A DNA stretch of 64,000 nucleotides from Squalus acanthias (GCA_030390025.1 CM059431.1:147810001-147874000); one strand, 5' to 3'. Counted from the stretch's first letter, positions 20,223-37,100 are shown. Notes: generated by a model from the letters alone, not told the origin. Numbers and translations: made by a program.

Positions 20223-20724
20223 TTGTTGGATCGGGTGGATGTGGGGAGGATGTTCCCGATGATGTGTGAAACTAGAACTCGGGGGCAAAGTCTTAGAATA
20301 ATGGGCTGCTCTTTCAAAACTGAGATGAGAAGGAACTACTTCACTCAGAAGGTGATAGGTCCATGGAATATGCTGCCCCCAAAAGCTGTAGAAGCTACAT
20401 CATTTCATAAATTTAAAACAGAAATAGACAGTTTCCTAGAAGTAAAGGGAATTAAGGTTTACGTGGAGCCGGCAGGAATTTGGACATGAGTCTAGTTTGG
20501 GATCGGTCATGGCCCTGTGGGTAGCGTAGCGGGCCCAGGGGCCGTGTAGCCTGATCCTGCTCCTATTTCGTGTGTCCAATTCTGTTAGGTTCAGGAGATG
20601 GTTCTGTGATAGTAGATTGGCGGTTAGGATCAGATCAGCCATGATCTTATTGAATGGCGGAGCAGGCTCGAGTGGCCAATTGGCCTACTCCTGCTCCTAT
20701 TTCTTATATTCTTATGTTCTTATG

Positions 20725-21566
20725 CATAGGCGCCACCTGGTGATGCCCATCATGGTCCAATATCCGAGTTCGGACTCCCAAAAACCCATGTGTCGGCCCC
20801 GGAGTGTGTTTGGGAGACAACCCGGGTTTCTTCTTCTTCTTCCCGCGATTGTGTTTTATTTGCGGTGGGGGGGGGGGGGGGGGGAGGGGGGGGAGTTTAT
20901 GACGGGCTTTCACTTTGAATTCTCTGGTATCTGTGGTTCCGTTTCCACAATCCGATACATGATCAGTAACACACATTTCATGGCCCAGCCCTCCCTCCTT
21001 TTCACCTAGCATCCATTGATAAGGGGGATCATTTTCTGCACCGGTCACACACGCAGGAGAAAGGCTGCAAACTAGGAATTCGGACCCAAAATTGACCCAA
21101 TTCTTGAGTGGGCCTGGTCGAGGCTTGACACATCCATATTTACCCTCATGCTCCTGCCACCACCGTGGCCAACACAACATGGTTTCCCCATGGCCTTCCC
21201 ATTGAATTGGGCTCCCATTATATCCCCAAGGATCTCCTATCTGGCGGTAACTAGTATTGTCACCTACCGTTGCCTGAATGAACCATACACGCGGCTGATT
21301 CACAGTCCCACTCTTACACTTTATACATAATCGCCTCCCTTCTTGAACCGTGTAGGAGGTTACCCGGACTATTCCTGAACAACTTTTGTCACATGTACCC
21401 TTGATAGATCGGAGAGTGACCTCCCGAGCGATACCTTGGGGCGGAGTTACGCGGCAATGGTAATCTGACTGTCGTAACTTGAATCGCTGGATGCTTCCAC
21501 ATGAGTTGCTGCTGCCCTTTCGAGATGGAGCGCTATGTCACACAGCAACCTAAATATCCTCCCCAT
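20725..21566 (-). pseudogene. env-position ORF: putative signal peptide plus immunoglobulin-like domains, truncated at a CR1 tail
   Basis: Acceptor ctctccgctttgttcccctcttccacAG at 21587-21586, then gaaATGG at 21566 (MGRIFRLLCDIALHLERAAA). After a frame change, the frame is open from 21537 and contains DYHCRV, TVQEGRRLCIKC..RVWF..EHEGKYGC and VNFGSEFLVC..PPYQW..DCGNG; sequons NTS and NGT. Confidence 0.6.
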
Positions 21567-21670: not shown

Positions 21671-24600
21671 CTATTCACTGGACCGCCTTGGCCGTTTCCC
21701 AGGTCCTTGCCTTAGATTGTAACCAACATCCTGTTCATGGGGAGGCACCTTGTCACACGGAGGTTCCTCAGGTGGGGTCGCCGCATTAGGCACCCCTTCT
21801 CCATCATCCCATTGGAGCGGCTGAGTCAGTCTCACCATGCTCATGATCGCAGCTTGCTGTCTTCTTGACCTACTTGTGGGCTGAAAATATTTCATCTGGT
21901 TAATGTGAAACAATTAGGGTTTCTGAGGTAACTGAAACGCGTATACCAGAGGACAAGCTTTGTCAACAATGTTATACGGTCCCTTATAGAGGGGTTCGAA
22001 CACTCCCACCCTCGCATAGTTTCGTAACATTACCTGGCTCGCTACTTCCCACTCCTGCGGTTTACTCGGAGCCAGGTGTAATCTGTTGCGTTGGTTTGTC
22101 TTTCCAATGTTATGGGCGGCTCTCAAGTTCAGTTCTTTCAAAGTTCCCCACAGGTCGCTCAGGAATTTGTCCCGAGTGACTTCATTCATTTGTTTATCAG
22201 TCAGAGTGGGAGCCAACAGGTGTGTGGGGGTTCGCATGGGTCTCCCTGTTACCAACTTATGAGGGGAGTGACCCGCTCCTTTGGATTTGTTACTGTGGAT
22301 CCCCATAAGGATTAGGGGAAGTATCTCATCCCACTTAGTGGGCTGTTTGTTTAATTCCTTTCGCAGGGCCAACTTCAACGTACGGTTCATTCTTTCCACA
22401 ATCCCTGATGACTGCGGTTTGGGGGTTACGTGTCATTTCCCTTCAATTCCAAACAACTTCAGGGTGGCTTGCATCACTTGACCTGTAAAATGACTCCCTT
22501 GGTCTGCACGGGAAAGCTTCGACCCACTTGGTAAAATTGTCCACTAGGACTAGACAATATTTATTACCCTTTCTTAATGGTGGGCAGAGGTCTGATAAAA
22601 TCTATCTGGACACACTGCCCCGGTCCCTCTGGTCGACGGGGGTGCCCGAGGGGAGCCTTTCTTTTATGTGGGTGAGGATTGTTAGCAGCACACACTAAAC
22701 AGGTTTTACAGTAATCTTCTATGTCTTTCCTCAGATGAGGCGACCACCCTACATCCTCGACCCGCTTCCAGGTTGTTTCTGTTCCGGGGTGTCCAGCCCC
22801 CGGTCCCCCGTGAGCGAGTTGCATGTATTCCTCCCTGTATCCCTCGGGCACAATCCACTTCTCTCCTTTGAACAACATACCTTCCCTGGCATTTACATCT
22901 TTGGCCCCATAAGGCGCTTCTACAATCTGACCTGCTTCTCTTTCCTTGAGGACAGCTTTTAGCACTACATCTGTCAGCTGTGTTATTTTGATATCCGGGG
23001 GAAGCGGAACAGTAACAGCCAGAGTGATGGCTGCTCCCACTCCCGATTGATACGGGTCCCACGGGACCCCTCTCTCCGCTCCCACCTCAGCAAGCTCGTC
23101 TGCTTTCCTATTTCCCTCCCACCTGGGTTCTGCATTAGAGTGGGCTTTGACCTTATGCATATAGTATTCCTCGCCTCCACTTCTTATGACTTCCGCTATG
23201 GTTGCCAGCATTGGCGCGGTAACCAGTGGCTTGCCATCTGCTGATTTAAAACCTCTTCTAGCCCAAAACGCCAACTATTCTGTGCAAGAATTACATGTAA
23301 ACATAGAGTCAGAGCAGATCGTATAGGGCGGGGGGAAATCGGTGGGATGTGTTACCACATAAGTTCCGGCTGCTAACTCTGCCTGCTGAGCTCTGAGAGT
23401 TGTGGGTAACTTACTCGCCACTTCCATTCCTTTCTGCGGGTCGTAAATTACACATCCTGTTTTACGTTGACCCCTTTCCATAAAACTAGACCCATCCAAA
23501 TATCTCTCTCTCCCTTCAGGGTGGATATCAGGTTTGAATCCGCCTTCTGTTTCCCACACCCCCTCGACTGTACAAGTGTGCGGTTCACCCATATATATAA
23601 GACTGGGTGCTAATTTCAGATCGTTTAACGGTTTCACTTTCAGGTTCATCCCTTCTAACTGTAGGGTCCATGTAGCTACTCGAGTGCTTGACACTGTTCC
23701 TTGCCTAATTCGGCCTTGTAACAGGAGGCGGGTTGGCGTGTGGTGGGTGAAGAGAGTGATGGGCTCGGTCCCCGGGAATAGGCAAAATGCTTCACTGCCC
23801 AGGATGTGGCCAGCAAGTGCCGCTCACAGGTAGAGTATCCCTTCTCCAGCTCAGTTAGCACTTTGGAGACATGAGCAACTGGTCTCAGGCTACCATTCAC
23901 TTCCTGCATTAAAACAGAACTCAGACTGGCGTCTGTTTCCGCTACTTCCAAAAAGAAGTCCTTCTTAGCATCTACGGCCCCCAATGCTGGGGCTGTTTGT
24001 AGATCCTTTTTCAACTTTACAAAAGCTTCCTCACAGTGCTCATCCCAATCCCATTCCACTCCCTTTCTGAGTAATCTCAGCAAAGGAGCTACCATCGCTG
24101 CGTAATTCTCAATAAATTCTCTACAGTACCCTGTTAGATCCAGGAATGATCTGAGAGCAGCTATTGAACCCGGGCGCTGCAATTCCTGGACAGTTTGGCG
24201 CTTTGCTCCGTCTATCGCGCGCTCCCCTGGTAACATAGTCAGTGTAAGAAACTGAAACTCTCTTTGCCCTACCGGTGCCTTCACGTGCTTTACCTTAAAA
24301 CCTACGGCTGCAAGCGATTCTAACAATTCCTGCAGCAGTTGCTCATGTTCCTCTTCGCTATCTGAGAACAGCAGGAAATCATCTGCACCCTGCACAAGCT
24401 GGCCTGGCTGACTGAATTCTGATAGACTGTTAGCCATACACTGATGGACAATAGACGGGCTATTGTGGAATCCCTGTGGCAAACAAGTCCACGCATACTG
24501 CTGACCTTTAAAGGTAAAAGCAAATTTATACTGGTCCTCCGGGTGTGAGGGAATTGACCAGAATCCTTTAGATATGTCCAATACTGGGAACACAGGGACA

Positions 24601-25450
24601 GAGCTGGGAATGTTGCCGATTAAATCAATCACAGCTGCTCCTGTGGGACCACAAGCAGGGATGGTTTTATTCAAGATTCTGTAATCTACAGTCATCCGCC
24701 AGGAATTGTCTGGCTTCATTACTGGCCAATCAGGAGAGTTAACATGCGTCACAATAGGTCTCAGGACCACGTGTTCTACTAAGGACGCAACAGCTTTTTC
24801 TCAGTCTCTCTCTCTGCTTCCTTGGGGAACCTACACTGTTTCTGGGGCGGGGACATTGGCTCACGCCCACACCCAACTCTACTCCTGTCACCCTTCCACA
24901 ATCATGTCTGTGGGTAGCACAAGCTCACTTGACATTCAGCACTGCGGTTTGATACCTCTCGGTCACCCTGGCCGTTAGTGTTTCTGAGTCATCGGGTGCC
25001 GCAGGTGTTACCACCCACGCTTCTCCATGTCTCGGGGGTATAACGATTACTTCTTCACCACAGTCCACTACGCCCCACAAACAGTTATTATCCATATCCA
25101 CTGCCACATTGTGAGACAACATCCAGTCAGAGCCCAGCTCTCCCATTCCTGGCTGATCACATTTCATTAGGAAACATCTCCACTTTGTCTGTAGGGGTCC
25201 GTCTGTGAAGATTAAAGTATTTGAGACCGCCCCAGCCGCTGAGTTACCCGTGAAACCTCCTAAAACACAGGGGAGGCGGGCACTTGACCAGGGAGACGAC
25301 ATCGGGGAGGGAGAGTGGATCTACCCTGCTTGACGCTCCAGTGTCTACCAGATAGTCCCCTCTCTCGCCCTCAATCAGAATGTCTACACACGGCCTTCCC
25401 CAATCACCGTACCTGATTGGGCACAGGTACTCGGGCTGGGCGCGGCCCCG
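21671..25450 (-). pseudogene. pol: pro-pol of the LTR element (protease, RT, RNase H-derived tether, RNase H, integrase)
   Basis: ORF pieces 24925-25302, 23676-24770, 23275-23694, 22564-23274, 21914-22399 and 21671-21913. The RT YxDD motif reads GADD; the integrase core has a deletion between WVEAFP and DQGSHF. Confidence 0.9.
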
Positions 25451-27843
25451 TCATGTTCGGGTCTTCCCGCGATCCTCCCCATGGGCCGCGTGGACCTTTC
25501 CTTGAGATGGTTCAAGCTCCTTCATCTGCTTAGCTACATATCGAATGAAATCCCCATAACTGGGGGCGCTGGGCTGAGATTCTGCCTCTCGTGGGGCCGC
25601 CTCAACCATTTCTTTCTCAGATGATCTTTTACAGTTCCGGGCATAGTGTCCCAACACCCCACAGGCAGAGCACTTCTTTCCCTGACTCCACTCATGCAAC
25701 CACTTCCGAGGTGCCCCCCGCCCTTCATTTCACAGACCTTGCCTTTTGACTTGCTTATTACCCCGGAGTTCTTTTTATCTAACTGGCGCGCCTGGAAACG
25801 CAGGCTCATTTTCCGCAACACCCTGATCTCAGTATTGGTGATATCTTCTGGGTCAAAGTACGCCATTGCGGCTTGTAAATAGGGCACACTGTAGGAGATC
25901 AGTGTGCAACCAATGGTTCCCCGCTTCTCCGTCGAGGTCTGCTCTCCTTACCACCCCTCCCATGGCTGCATTATAGGTCGGCCATAACCTGTCAGCAAAA
26001 GCTGCCAGGTGTTCGTTTGGGCCTTGATCCACGTCCGCCACGGCCTTAAAAGAAACCCTTTACCCTGTCACAACAACTGGGCAACCCTCAACTTTAGCGC
26101 ACCGTCAGTGCCCTCTCTCCTCTTATTCTCTGGTGGAAGTCCAGCAAAGACACTGGAGCTCAGAGTAAATAGCAGCAAGCGCTTCTTTTCCTCCTTAACC
26201 AGGTCATTTAAAGCGGCCTTCTGCACCAGTCGCTGAAGGTAAGCATGCAGGTACAGCAGGCGGTTAAGATGGCAAATGGTATGTTGGCCTTCATAGCGAG
26301 AGGATTCGAGTACAGGAGCAAGGATGTTTTGCTGCAGTTGTCCAAGGCCTTGGTGAGACCACACCTTTAGTATTGTGTGCAGTTTTGGTCGCCTTATCTG
26401 AGGAAGGATGTTGTTGCCATGGAGAGAGTGCAGCGAAGATTTACCAGACTGATACCTGGGACGGCAGGAATGACGTATGAAGATAGATTTGGTCGATTAG
26501 GCTTATATTCGCTAGAGTTTAGAAGAATGAGAGGGGATCTCATTGAAACTTATAAAACTCCAACAGGACTAGACAGACTAGATGCAGGAAGGATGTTCCC
26601 GATGGCAGGGTTGTCCAGAACCAGGGGTCACAGTCTAAGGATAAGGGGTAAGCCATTTAGGACTGAGATGAGGAGGAATTTCTTCACCCAGAGAGTGTTG
26701 AACCTGTGGAATTCTCTACCACAGAAGGCATTTGAGGCCAATTCATTAAATATATTCAAGAAGGAGATAGATATATTTCTTAAGGCGAAAGGGATCAAGG
26801 AATATGGTGAGAAAGCAGGGACAGGGTACTGAATTTGGATGATCAGCCATGATCTCATTAAATGGCGGAGCAGTCTCGAGGGGCCGAATGGCCAACTCCT
26901 GCTCCTATCTTCTATGCTTCTATGCTTCTATGCTTCTACTTCCAGATAATACCCTTGGGGGCCCCCTCCCATTGCCAGCTTGTTCATATCACTGGACATT
27001 TTCCTTAACTCCTCAGTATTATACGGGACCACAAACTCCCTCTCTAGCGCCCCCAGCGCTCCTTCACCCGCACCCACGGCCGGAGCCTGGTACCGTTTTT
27101 GACACATCGGGGCCATAGGTGGGGGACTGAATCCCTCCGGTGGGCTATTTCCAGTTTGTGAGCCCGTCGGCGGGTGATTTTTATCAACCCCTTTGGTATC
27201 CTGCAGATCTCCTCCAACCACAGGAGTCATGGCACACACAATACCCCTCTGGACCTTCAACTTTTCCCGCAGCTCCCTAATCAATTCCTTCCATTCAGTG
27301 TCATCCCCGGCAGCACTCCGGTCCTCCAGAGCCTGTCTCTGAGTGAACCTGAATGCAGCCTTCAAATCGTCATCAGCTTTCTCTGCTCGTTCTTACCGAT
27401 CTCTCTGGTTGGCCGCCTCCTCTGAACAAACATCTCACTGATTCTGATTATTTACACACCGGCTCTCAAGGTACTGCCCTTTGTTACACCACCTCTCCTT
27501 TACCTTTTTAAGCTGTCCCTAAGCCTTTTCTTACTTTCTCTTTCACCCTCTAATTCCAGTCGAACCCGGTTTACAACCGCTTCCCTATCACTGACATCCT
27601 TTACCATCTCTTCCATCTCCTTATGCATCTGAGCCATTTTACACACATCATTCTTAAACTGCCTCTGGTCTGCCATTGACCAGACGGCCGTTACCATCCC
27701 TGGCCGGCAGGTGGACCCTTGGTCCACTGTTCAGCCTCAGCCACTGGGTCAGCAACCTCAATAATGCCCCGTACCCACCCCTTCCTGAGGGGTAACTTCG
27801 CTCTCACATATTTCCTGACTAACTCATACATTGTTTTTGCCAT
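25451..27843 (-). pseudogene. gag: gag of the LTR element, interrupted by a CR1
   Basis: MAKTMYELVRKY start, coiled-coil segments, MHR-like motif, CCHC knuckle, PSAP, and TGA at 25453-25451. Confidence 0.85.
26225..26937 (+). mobile_element. 5'-truncated CR1 inserted in gag
   Basis: ORF 26377-26832 is the CR1 RT C-terminus; (tatgcttc)n tail; gag sequence continues on both sides. Confidence 0.92.
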
Positions 27844-27859
27844 TGTTTTTTCCGAGCGA

Positions 27860-27877
27860 GTCCCTGTTCGGGCGCCA
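27860..27877 (-). promoter_or_regulatory. Primer binding site for tRNA-Lys(UUU) (Lys3)
   Basis: Minus strand TGGCGCCCGAACAGGGAC, an 18/18 match to the tRNA-Lys3 primer site, 5 nt after the ...CTTACA LTR end. Confidence 0.95.
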
Positions 27878-34129: not shown

Positions 34130-37100
34130 TTAATTCTGGTTAAAGGAAGATTTGGTTTGACTTTTCATTTGTTTAACCAATATCAGAATCAATGTCAAAG
34201 GAGATTTCACCACTTTCGTCAGCTCTTCCCTGAATTTAGTTTGTGTAGCTGCATAAATACAAGTGTTTGTACAGGAACTCAAAAACATGAGCATATATCC
34301 GGCTAGAGTGGCGATGAATGCAGGAGATGTATAATCGGGTCGGAGATGCACGGCCAGTTTGTTAATTATAGAATTTACAGCAGATGTCAACCAAAACAGT
34401 ATAAAACTGCCCGATACAATGAACAGTAAAATGATAGATTTCCTTCGGTTCTCCATCTCTGGATCGCTCTGATTCTCACTGCTGTCACCCCGGAGTCCCC
34501 TGCGGATTCTACTGGCCACTAAAATACGTCTGACTGTCAAACAATTAAACAGTAATATCAAAACAAAAGGAAGATATGTAATTAAAATATTCTGTATGTG
34601 GAAGTAGGCTACACCTGCAGGCGATGAAAAAAAGGCCATACTGGGGCGGAAACCCCAGGTAATATTGTTGATTATTTGTTTGTGCTCATATGCAAACAAA
34701 TAGGGGATGTTCTCTAAATAAACCAGAACAGAGACCGTTGTTATAACCGCGGCCGCAGTTCTCACTGTGCAATACTTTGTTTTAAACTTCTGAAAACATA
34801 TAGCTACAAATCGGTCAAATGTGAAGGAGACGGTAAACCACACCGACATATCCAGGTTGGTACAAGACATGTACATCATGAACTTACAAACGGCAGTGTA
34901 GGACAGGAATGAATATGGGAAGTGTTGACTCAAAATATGATATACGATTACATTGACGATCATGACCAGTAGATCTGCTGTTGCCATGGCCACCATGTAG
35001 ACAGAGATACATTTGGAAAGGCCGCATTTTCCTCTGGAGAGAATCACCATTGTCAAAAGGTTCGCTGTAAGAAAGAGGGACAAGAGTAAGTAATGGGGAC
35101 ACTCGGATAAATCTGACAACGTATTGTGGGGAGATGAACCGATGTGTTCCTACTGAGGGTTATGCACACACTATTATATAGACGATATTGACAATGGACA
35201 TTTTCAAACGAAATTTATCATTAAACACTCAATATCGAGGGAGTGAGAATGCGCCGTCCTGCCAGCACACTTCAGTCAGACTGTGACAAGGTGGTGGGTG
35301 GAGGTGGGTGTTGGGAGGATCGCTCGTATTCAGTATCGGAAATGGCAACGGATAGCGACCCCAACACCACCGACAACCAAGCACTGATGACTCAACGGAG
35401 GGAAATTTTGATTTTGGGCGATAGTGTAAAACGGGCGACAAAGGATCAGCCGTCCATGATACGTCTCTTCCGATTGAATCTCCATCGATATCGCCACTGA
35501 CACTATATTCATGAAAAAAAACAGAAAATTCTGGAAATACTCAGCAGGACAAGCATCATCTGTAGAGAGGGAAACAAAGTTTACGTTTCATGTCGAAACC
35601 TTTCGTTAGAAATCTTTTGAGGCTCCATTCACACTTTAACGGTGCGGTCCAGGCCAAGACACAATGGCCCAAAAATTAGTCCCGCTACGCGAGAGTACGC
35701 ACTGTGTACTCTCGCGTATTCTGTCTCCAATTGCCGGTTTTCTGCATGCACTGCGCATGCGCTGAAAACCGGCACTTGGTGAATGGAAAAGGGGGCGGGT
35801 CCTAGGTGAACCGCGTGCGCGCTACAGGCTGCGCGCACGCTGTGCACTTAGTGGTTTCAACGCGCAGGTAAGTACGGAAGATTCTGGACATAAAAAAAGG
35901 AGGAGTAAGACCCACTTTTAACAAGGTAAGTAGTGAATTAAGTATTATTCTGAATTTTTTTTAACAGGTATATCTTTTTTAGAGACTTTAAAGACAGGTA
36001 AGTTTATTTTTATAACTTTTTAAAAGATTTTAAATTTTTTCAAAAATTAAATGTTTTATTTGAAATGGTAAATTTATTTAACTATACTTATTTTATTAAT
36101 GTGATGGTTTTTTAAAATTTAATTGAGGTTTAGCGGTTCTTTTGGGGGGCTATAGTATTCATAACTTTCACAGCACTTATGTGAAAGTTATGAATGGAAA
36201 ATGGTGTGCTGCCATTGGCTCTAACTGAGTCACGTGATCCCACAGCTCGCACGAATTAACTACGCCGGTGGGATACGCAAGCCCAGCACAGCAGCTGTCC
36301 AGAACATCAAGTTCGTGCGAGCTGGAACTGAAAAAGCCAACGCGGAGTGAGAGATCGCGGGGAGGCCTTACCCTCGCACGAAGGCTTCCTCACGAATTTT
36401 TGGGCCAATAACTCGCAGGGACGGTCCAGTTACAGATTAAAGTCCCTTAAAGGGCAGCCTTTGACGGTTCTGTAACTTGTTAATTTTCAGAATCAATAAA
36501 GAAGCGAATTCCCTTACATATATCCAAACACACATTCCAATGCAGTGTGGCTGGGACCATGTGATGCACCGAGCCAATTTGATGAGTTACTACAGCGGCC
36601 CCAGGGAGCAATCGATGGACTTTTACATTTAATCTCATCGGTTTAATTGGCGAGGGGGATCTCGGTAGCGGCATCAGATGTAAGCTCTATTCAATATATT
36701 TTAAACACAATTACTGGAAAGATATGAATTAAAATAATACATTCAGCAGTGACACAAACATTCGATGTAGGTCGAAACTCTGCGCTTTTTCTATTTCTAA
36801 TGGCCCCGAGGGAAGCTGCTCGGTAACAGAGCGGGAGCTGGTGGAGCCGTGAAGATTCTTTGCAGCCTAGGGGAGGAGTGAAGCTCCCTGAGCGGAACTT
36901 ATTGCTCCAAATATCTTTCACAGTCCTCTGATGGGTGGAGGTGGCTGCGGTACCAGGAATTATCAACTTAAAGTAGACAGGGAACAACGGTACAGATGAA
37001 ATGATTAACATGGACACTAAACAACACATTCTTTAATGATCTATGTACTATTTGAGATGCCGGGGAATCAGCCTCGCCCTCCCTCAGTATAGGGAGCAAG

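Follow-up and report, generated by a model that had tools for sequence, protein, structure and literature searches.

A family of endogenous retroviruses in the genome of Squalus acanthias appears, on balance, to make its Gag-Pol polyprotein by an alphavirus-like readthrough of UGA, in which a leaky UGA-C context is combined with a predicted long-range RNA stem. The production of Gag-Pol via UGA readthrough is, judging from the sequence, very likely. Given readthrough, the predicted long-range stem probably stimulates it. The frame, the stop, its contexts and the pairing potential were observed across 12 subfamilies. An earlier note on this DNA had proposed UGA readthrough stimulated by an RNA structure. 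Readthrough would indeed be the best explanation of a conserved TGA lying in one frame with both genes, and a structure probably helps, although the local H-type pseudoknot suggested in that note was unsupported.

Provirus in the window

The window, the whole stretch of 64,000 nt that was analysed, holds a provirus on the minus strand, with a primer binding site (PBS), a broken gag, protease-reverse transcriptase-tether-RNase H-integrase (PR-RT-tether-RNase H-IN) and an env remnant. The PBS (27860..27877) is complementary to the host tRNA-Lys(UUU); it is the sole exact match in the window, and the complementary pattern matches genomic tRNA-Lys(ttt) genes. The gag gene (25454..27845) is interrupted by stops, frameshifts and an insertion. 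It was located by tblastn with a Gag query from a younger family, which matched at 27380-26934 and 26002-25460, and its approximate 5' end was placed at the first ATG downstream of the PBS. The insertion is of LINE/SINE type (26224..26933, no strand assigned), contains a LINE-like ORF at 26371-26832 and is private to the window copy, as the close copies that were compared lack it, their alignments skipping from about 26223 to 26934. A single CCHC zinc knuckle of the nucleocapsid was recognized in the translated frame at 25631..25672; the younger-family Gag matched Pfam zf-CCHC at E 0.0014, under the curated cut-off.

Pro-pol (21866..25450) carries frameshifts and stops. It was mapped by tblastn and by the Pfam domains RVT_1, RT_RNaseH_2, RNase_H and Integrase_H2C2. 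The env remnant (20704..21537) is a truncated N-terminal part, with a weak tblastn match to the younger-family env (21369-21127, E 5e-5). No LTR pair was found for the window copy. With the LTR pairs taken from younger-family copies, the layout is that of an endogenous retrovirus, LTR-PBS-gag-pro-pol(RT, tether, RNase H, IN)-env-LTR. The window copy itself is an inactive relic of the family's gag/UGA/pro-pol design. The PBS of the younger family differs from that of the window copy, being complementary to tRNA-Arg(UCG) (L065:2491-2508), and shares bases with an ATG that is in frame with gag.

In-frame stop between gag and pro

The codons CGA ACA TGA CGG GGC are found on the minus strand as the earlier note described, with the TGA at 25453-25451 and the type II hexamer TGA-CGG at 25448..25453. 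A single frame runs from the CCHC knuckle (25672-25631) through this stop into RGRAQPEYLCPIRYGDWGRPCVDILIEGERGDYLVDTGAS and reaches the protease active-site motif DTGA (25334..25345) 36 codons past the stop, a spacing that recurs in other subfamilies.

It was observed that TGA is the state of the family and not a product of CpG decay. It is present in 30/30 close loci, and the post-junction codon pattern gave 2,869 matches in this genome with the stop unspecified versus 2,832 with TGA, where the former count required a preceding base other than T and the latter allowed any; the two are not perfectly nested. Reversed control patterns gave 0 matches in the genome. TGA was present in 98 of the first 100 listed matches of the stop-unspecified pattern.

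Type II readthrough, as defined by Beier and Grimm, occurs at UGA followed by CGG or CUA (PMC13517186). The window (UGA-CGG) and 2,538 of the 2,832 junctions carry such a context, and both known forms are found at the same junction site. CGG, which had been taken as the context of the element, is not the norm in the family; CUA is (2,484 versus 54 junctions). In the window's clade, a hand count of the first 100 of 112 matches gave CGG 35, AGA 22, AGG 21, CUA 13, other 5 and not TGA 4, and CGG is thus one state among several. The poor context UGA-A occurred in 43 of these 100 listed copies, in UGA-AGA or UGA-AGG subfamilies of clade A that include L114, L105 and L131. This counts against the model proposed below. 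The predicted stem described below reaches +1 in two folded UGA-AGA copies.

The region past the stop is conserved like protein. In codons +11..+23 the amino-acid identity was 65%, and 47% of the identical residues were on different codons, as in RT. These codons precede any in-frame ATG, and in 5/12 subfamilies, the window's included, there is no ATG ahead of the catalytic Asp. Ribosomes must therefore come from upstream in the gag frame. Frameshifting in place of readthrough was rejected: pol shares the frame of gag, and in 29/29 representatives one or more of the other frames closes within 72 nt. The stop is a real, ancestral feature of the family.

Copies and subfamilies

The nearest copies of the window element are 91-94% identical to it, and most of them lose the frame 67 codons past the stop. 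Their common ancestor must therefore have been a provirus that was broken before it was copied, and they do not count as independent evidence; for this reason other subfamilies were added by protein and pattern searches. One protease frameshift is common to the close copies L002-L024 (C7, C26, C29, C31 and unplaced contigs), which are thus duplicates or passive copies of a broken provirus. The 12 subfamilies are working groups, assigned by eye on junction motifs.

In the younger family, six stretches chosen for their long frames showed gag, TGA, 1,493-1,500 open pol codons and then env. LTR pairs were found in 4/6 stretches and were 98.6-99.0% identical. The family has thus undergone replication in the recent past while carrying the stop.

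The env of the younger family (L066:187-1539; L065:9070-9903) gave an ESM Atlas lead to Baculo_F/Fusion_gly (0.94-0.95, low recognition) and a weak match to an Ig domain (E 0.1); a Pfam search of this env gave no match to an F-type fusion protein. An open frame of 165-172 codons overlaps env in another frame (L062:572-1072, L064:826-1323, L066:549-1067 and L072:542-1042) and is possibly an accessory gene.

Local RNA structure

Both elements of the local pseudoknot are present in the window (25399..25430, minus strand), namely the stem GTACCTG/CAGGTAC, which starts 20 nt past the stop, and the complementarity CCCAAT/ATTGGG. Neither conservation across copies nor stability beyond chance could be confirmed for it. 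Stem 1 was complete in 22/28 close copies and stem 2 in 1/28, the window itself, which was also the only one of 124 junctions with both stems complete (L018 and L028, which have indels, and six 3' stretches without the junction are excluded from this count). The proposed stimulator is thus private to the window copy. The 64-nt fold had z = -1.69, with 11/200 shuffles as stable, and on the 38-copy alignment 77.7% of the pseudoknot was paired, a value reached by 28/500 shuffles. The probability of stem 1 exceeded 0.5 in 15/144 junction folds (nested folding only). In the 252-nt fold of the window copy it was 0.00, its bases being taken up there by pairing with partners about 170-200 nt downstream. 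The pseudoknot is formally possible, unconserved and outcompeted in longer folds.

The 8-bp hairpin that the earlier note gave as an alternative is intact in the window; among the subfamilies, some keep it complete and others have it broken, and its probability was >0.5 in 23/144 folds. Local folds of 60-160 nt were discarded, as they gave no consistent signal over 13 copies (z +1.2 to -2.8). The junction has UGA throughout and not the UAG-G of gammaretroviruses, and it lacks the conserved H-type pseudoknot after an 8-nt spacer that is typical of them. Rfam searches of four loci returned nothing at the gathering score.

Predicted long-range stem

In the 252-nt fold of the window copy, positions +2..+29 past the stop (25449-25422) paired with 25252-25223, mostly with probabilities of 0.93-1.0, and the 254-nt fold had z = -2.43. 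The 5' arm (25422..25449, minus strand) contains a conserved core at +10..+17 and +24..+29; the 3' arm (25223..25252, minus strand) lies in the protease coding region, at the G-F-T-G...A-G-A codons. The pairing predicted from folds and alignments joins +10..+29 with +195..+218 and leaves a loop of about 165 nt. The predicted folds thus agree with the alphavirus type of stem, which is characterized by ~11-14 bp, a start 8-12 nt past the stop, a long loop and conservation in relatives.

The arm probability exceeded 0.5 in 125/144 junctions versus 2/133 control windows, a comparison for which the arm positions were selected after the data had been seen. Among the 127 junctions with a recognizable distal arm in place, 119 exceeded the same value. 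The RNAalifold consensus recovered the stem unprompted. In 38 copies the 14-pair core was 94.2% paired, which was matched by 0/500 shuffles, and a 20-pair version was 84.7% paired, with three double changes. One core pair is C-G in 20/38 copies and G-C in 12/38, both sites being silent. Compensatory changes were few: both sides change in 1/14 core pairs and in 3/20 pairs of the longer model, and, since the copies are related, these double changes represent few events.

Silent sites were found to prefer the pairing base well beyond codon usage. At +213, where a share of 0.18 is expected for U, this base occupied 9.3 of 12 subfamilies (0/15 other Ala columns were as fixed); G was present at +27 and at +15 in 12/12 each, and G at +210 in 10.3 of 11 subfamilies. 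Codons +1..+10 had the highest silent-site conservation of 456 windows (466 pol codons). In 1,400 nt of pol, the long-range stem was the best chained conserved helix, scoring 27.4, whereas the runner-up among helices that do not have both arms in common with it scored 16.4.

Three predictions were written before 20 new loci were fetched. The predicted fold held in 17/20 of these loci. Of the loci in which both arms were present, 18/18 had G at +210 as well as the predicted purine at +198, and 16/18 had U at +213. The prediction that +216 tracks +12 failed in 8/18 new loci (6 A-C and 2 G-G), where a single bulge shifts the register instead.

Several observations weaken the case for the stem. 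The distal arm showed no clear silent-site peak (excess 0.18-0.20; the proximal arm reached 0.55 and other regions about 0.15). The inner helix was slightly outscored by a competing single helix that pairs +24..+35 with +102..+113. The duplex outperformed all 174 control anchors in 8/16 representatives only; in the other 8/16, some control anchors paired as strongly (up to 37 of 174), and in 3/13 representatives the best pairing partner was elsewhere. The conserved stem could also serve RNA stability or packaging.

Synthesis of Gag-Pol

In the proposed mechanism, gag and pro-pol, which lie in one frame split by a single conserved UGA, are joined by readthrough of this stop, at which most ribosomes would halt and release Gag, and a minority would insert a near-cognate amino acid. 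The leaky UGA-C context and the stem, which is predicted to pair the first ~30 nt with protease-coding RNA about 170-200 nt downstream, would likely stimulate this readthrough. The stem core, about 9 nt past the stop, would be placed at the mRNA entry channel and could hinder termination there, as PMC8310308 and PMC13517186 discuss for such elements. The outcome would be Gag-Pol at a fixed low ratio.

Readthrough could also be driven by UGA-C(UA) and the nearby primary sequence alone, the pairing then serving protection from NMD, packaging or splice control, or being a by-product. This is a less probable alternative. The Rous sarcoma virus reportedly has an RNA stability element, which would be a precedent for such a role. 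Silent-site conservation is concentrated in codons +1..+13, and the weakest duplexes (-23 to -30 kcal/mol) occur in the most numerous of the UGA-CUA families, a context for which structure is only conditionally needed according to a 2026 review (PMC13517186). However, the distal-arm silent sites hold the pairing base, and the core starts 9 nt beyond the stop codon, where the stimulators described in PMC3159437 and PMC13517186 are also located. In addition, UGACGG requires a downstream stem in VEEV and CTFV (PMC13517186), and the strongest duplexes tend to be those of CGG/AGR copies, a tendency confounded by GC content. Stimulation by the local pseudoknot, 20 nt past the UGA, is very improbable: both of its stems are perfect in the window copy and stem 1 is retained in most close copies, but complete pairing is otherwise lost, stem 1 is partly dictated by two Tyr codons, and the 20-nt spacer exceeds the 8-12 nt of the cases described as tested in PMC3159437. 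Its stem 1 and loop may also raise a steric problem. A loop of 4 nt would be tight for spanning a 7-bp stem.

The alternatives that dispense with readthrough fared worse than reliance on context. It is unlikely that Pol comes from a spliced or separately initiated mRNA, as in foamy viruses, or from a bypass of the stop as in the Candida element Tca2, whose UGA and predicted pseudoknot gave no readthrough in a reporter (PMC2194720). An invariant CAG at +13..+15 could act as a splice acceptor, but the pyrimidine tract before it is scant and no GT..AG joint was found among the joints listed from contigs (contigs only, a weak test). Likewise, the ATG at codon +24 in 7/12 subfamilies could allow separate initiation, yet the protein-like conservation begins upstream of it and the remaining subfamilies, including that of the window, have none; without readthrough, moreover, the type II contexts would lack a reason to persist. 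Least probable of all is that the stop represents decay from CGA to TGA, a site of A-to-I editing or a selenocysteine codon. The window copy is decayed and the long duplex beside the stop could draw ADAR, but about 98% of copies have TGA, including those of recent origin, and the decay reading is largely refuted. Among 100 rows listed for clade A, a single one had TGG at the stop, and among 100 listed general rows none did, which counts against editing because edited genomes should be fixed as TGG, and no SECIS match was obtained with Rfam in four loci including LTRs. UGA readthrough aided by the long-range stem is thus the preferred reading.

Comparison with known readthrough systems

The closest resemblance is to the alphaviruses. 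Both of their contexts, UGA-CGG in VEEV and UGA-CUA in Sindbis virus (SINV) according to PMC3159437 and PMC13517186, also occur in the shark family, and the predicted shark stem has the same geometry as the VEEV and SINV elements presented as tested in PMC3159437, where stimulators begin 8-12 nt past the stop. Common to both would be a stem of ~8+6 bp or longer with a one-base bulge, a core 9 nt past the stop and a long loop. The alphaviruses also obtain their polymerase via readthrough, as would the shark family. Unlike them, the shark element sits at a retroviral gag-pro junction. Its loop is about 165 nt (inner helix) or 190 nt (outer helix), versus 101 nt in VEEV, 154 nt in SINV and 268 nt in kelch, and only its proximal arm has a clear silent-site peak, whereas alphaviruses have two.

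With the gammaretrovirus MoMLV, the shark family shares a single in-frame stop between nucleocapsid and protease and a structure, here predicted, on the 3' side of the stop. MoMLV uses UAG-G, an 8-nt spacer and a compact pseudoknot, whereas the shark family has UGA-C and no conserved pseudoknot. The earlier note regarded the combination of UGA and RNA structure as unusual for a retrovirus-like element. UGA junctions as such were already known, the 2026 review giving SSSV (UGAAGA), ZFERV (UGACGA) and a Rhinella toad ERV (UGAAGU), but for none of the three does it give an extended stem or a type II hexamer (PMC13517186). These three elements resemble the shark family in the in-frame gag/pro UGA and the aquatic hosts, and UGA-AGA, which L142 shows as well, is shared with the window's clade. 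They differ in being epsilon-related class I elements. The review describes readthrough outside gammaretroviruses as lacking experimental verification, with unclear cis elements, and a pseudoknot survey reports none after the SnRV or WDSV stop (PMC3835772). In the freely accessible literature searched, no retrovirus was described as having either a type II context or an extended stem. UGA junctions in some fish and frog retroviruses are thus known; the type II context with an extended predicted stem was not found in print.

It seems somewhat more plausible than not that, independently of alphaviruses, a retrovirus lineage evolved a complete type II cassette, with UGA-CUA/CGG and a stem that encloses about 170-190 nt of the RNA coding for the protease, the stem being perhaps old and of longer range in SnRV. 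If true, retroviruses would have a third route to Gag-Pol, in addition to frameshifting and the UAG pseudoknot, and the Retroviridae would join the groups with type II readthrough. It would suggest convergence of a retrovirus on the alphavirus recoding design, and natural copies numbering in the thousands, from at least 12 subfamilies, point to one specific, testable element. It also offers a lead for the missing stimulators of SnRV, SSSV and epsilonretroviruses, which may lie 200-350 nt downstream, beyond the nearest 60 nt.

Relatives and other observations

In the databases, the most similar proteins (about 50% identity) come from frogs and coelacanth. The best named RT match was the snakehead retrovirus, SnRV (L133), with 44% identity over 257 aa versus 34-37% for class I; the RT of L133 matches the SnRV row in the PMC7947760 supplement. 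SnRV also has an in-frame stop ahead of the protease and a PL...GRP.V motif past it, but its stop context is UAG-GGC. SnRV-like ERVs have been described as clade Huo (PMC6001957) and as CmiERV lineage I (PMC4422223). The trees gave no supported clade of SnRV with the shark elements, and in one tree SnRV grouped with class I at 96/95; grouping with the shark elements was not rejected by the AU test (p = 0.20).

A first guess, lokiretrovirus, was rejected on the compact PR-RT layout and the trees. Lokiretroviruses have an RT sister to that of all other retroviruses, a Pol with long PR-RT inserts and an Env related to paramyxovirus F. Compared by eye, the layout of the published Pol entries inspected is unlike the compact PR-RT of the shark family, and the loki-like P0011 and P0138, a label assigned by inference, branch apart from the shark elements.

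In L133, +1..+30 past the gag UAG was predicted to pair with about +323..+357, with a duplex of -34.7 kcal/mol versus -28.0 for the best control, a value from one sequence with no covariation. The coelacanth gene model P0005 joins Gag and Pol in one predicted protein, with Gln and then Gly at the stop position, as would be expected either of a relative using UAG-G or of a sense codon at this site.

Two further features were seen in the window. An intronless open frame of 339 codons at 34130-35149 (minus strand) resembles, by eye, a seven-transmembrane receptor, and from about 40070 a long tandem array contains at least 172 copies of a 26-nt unit.
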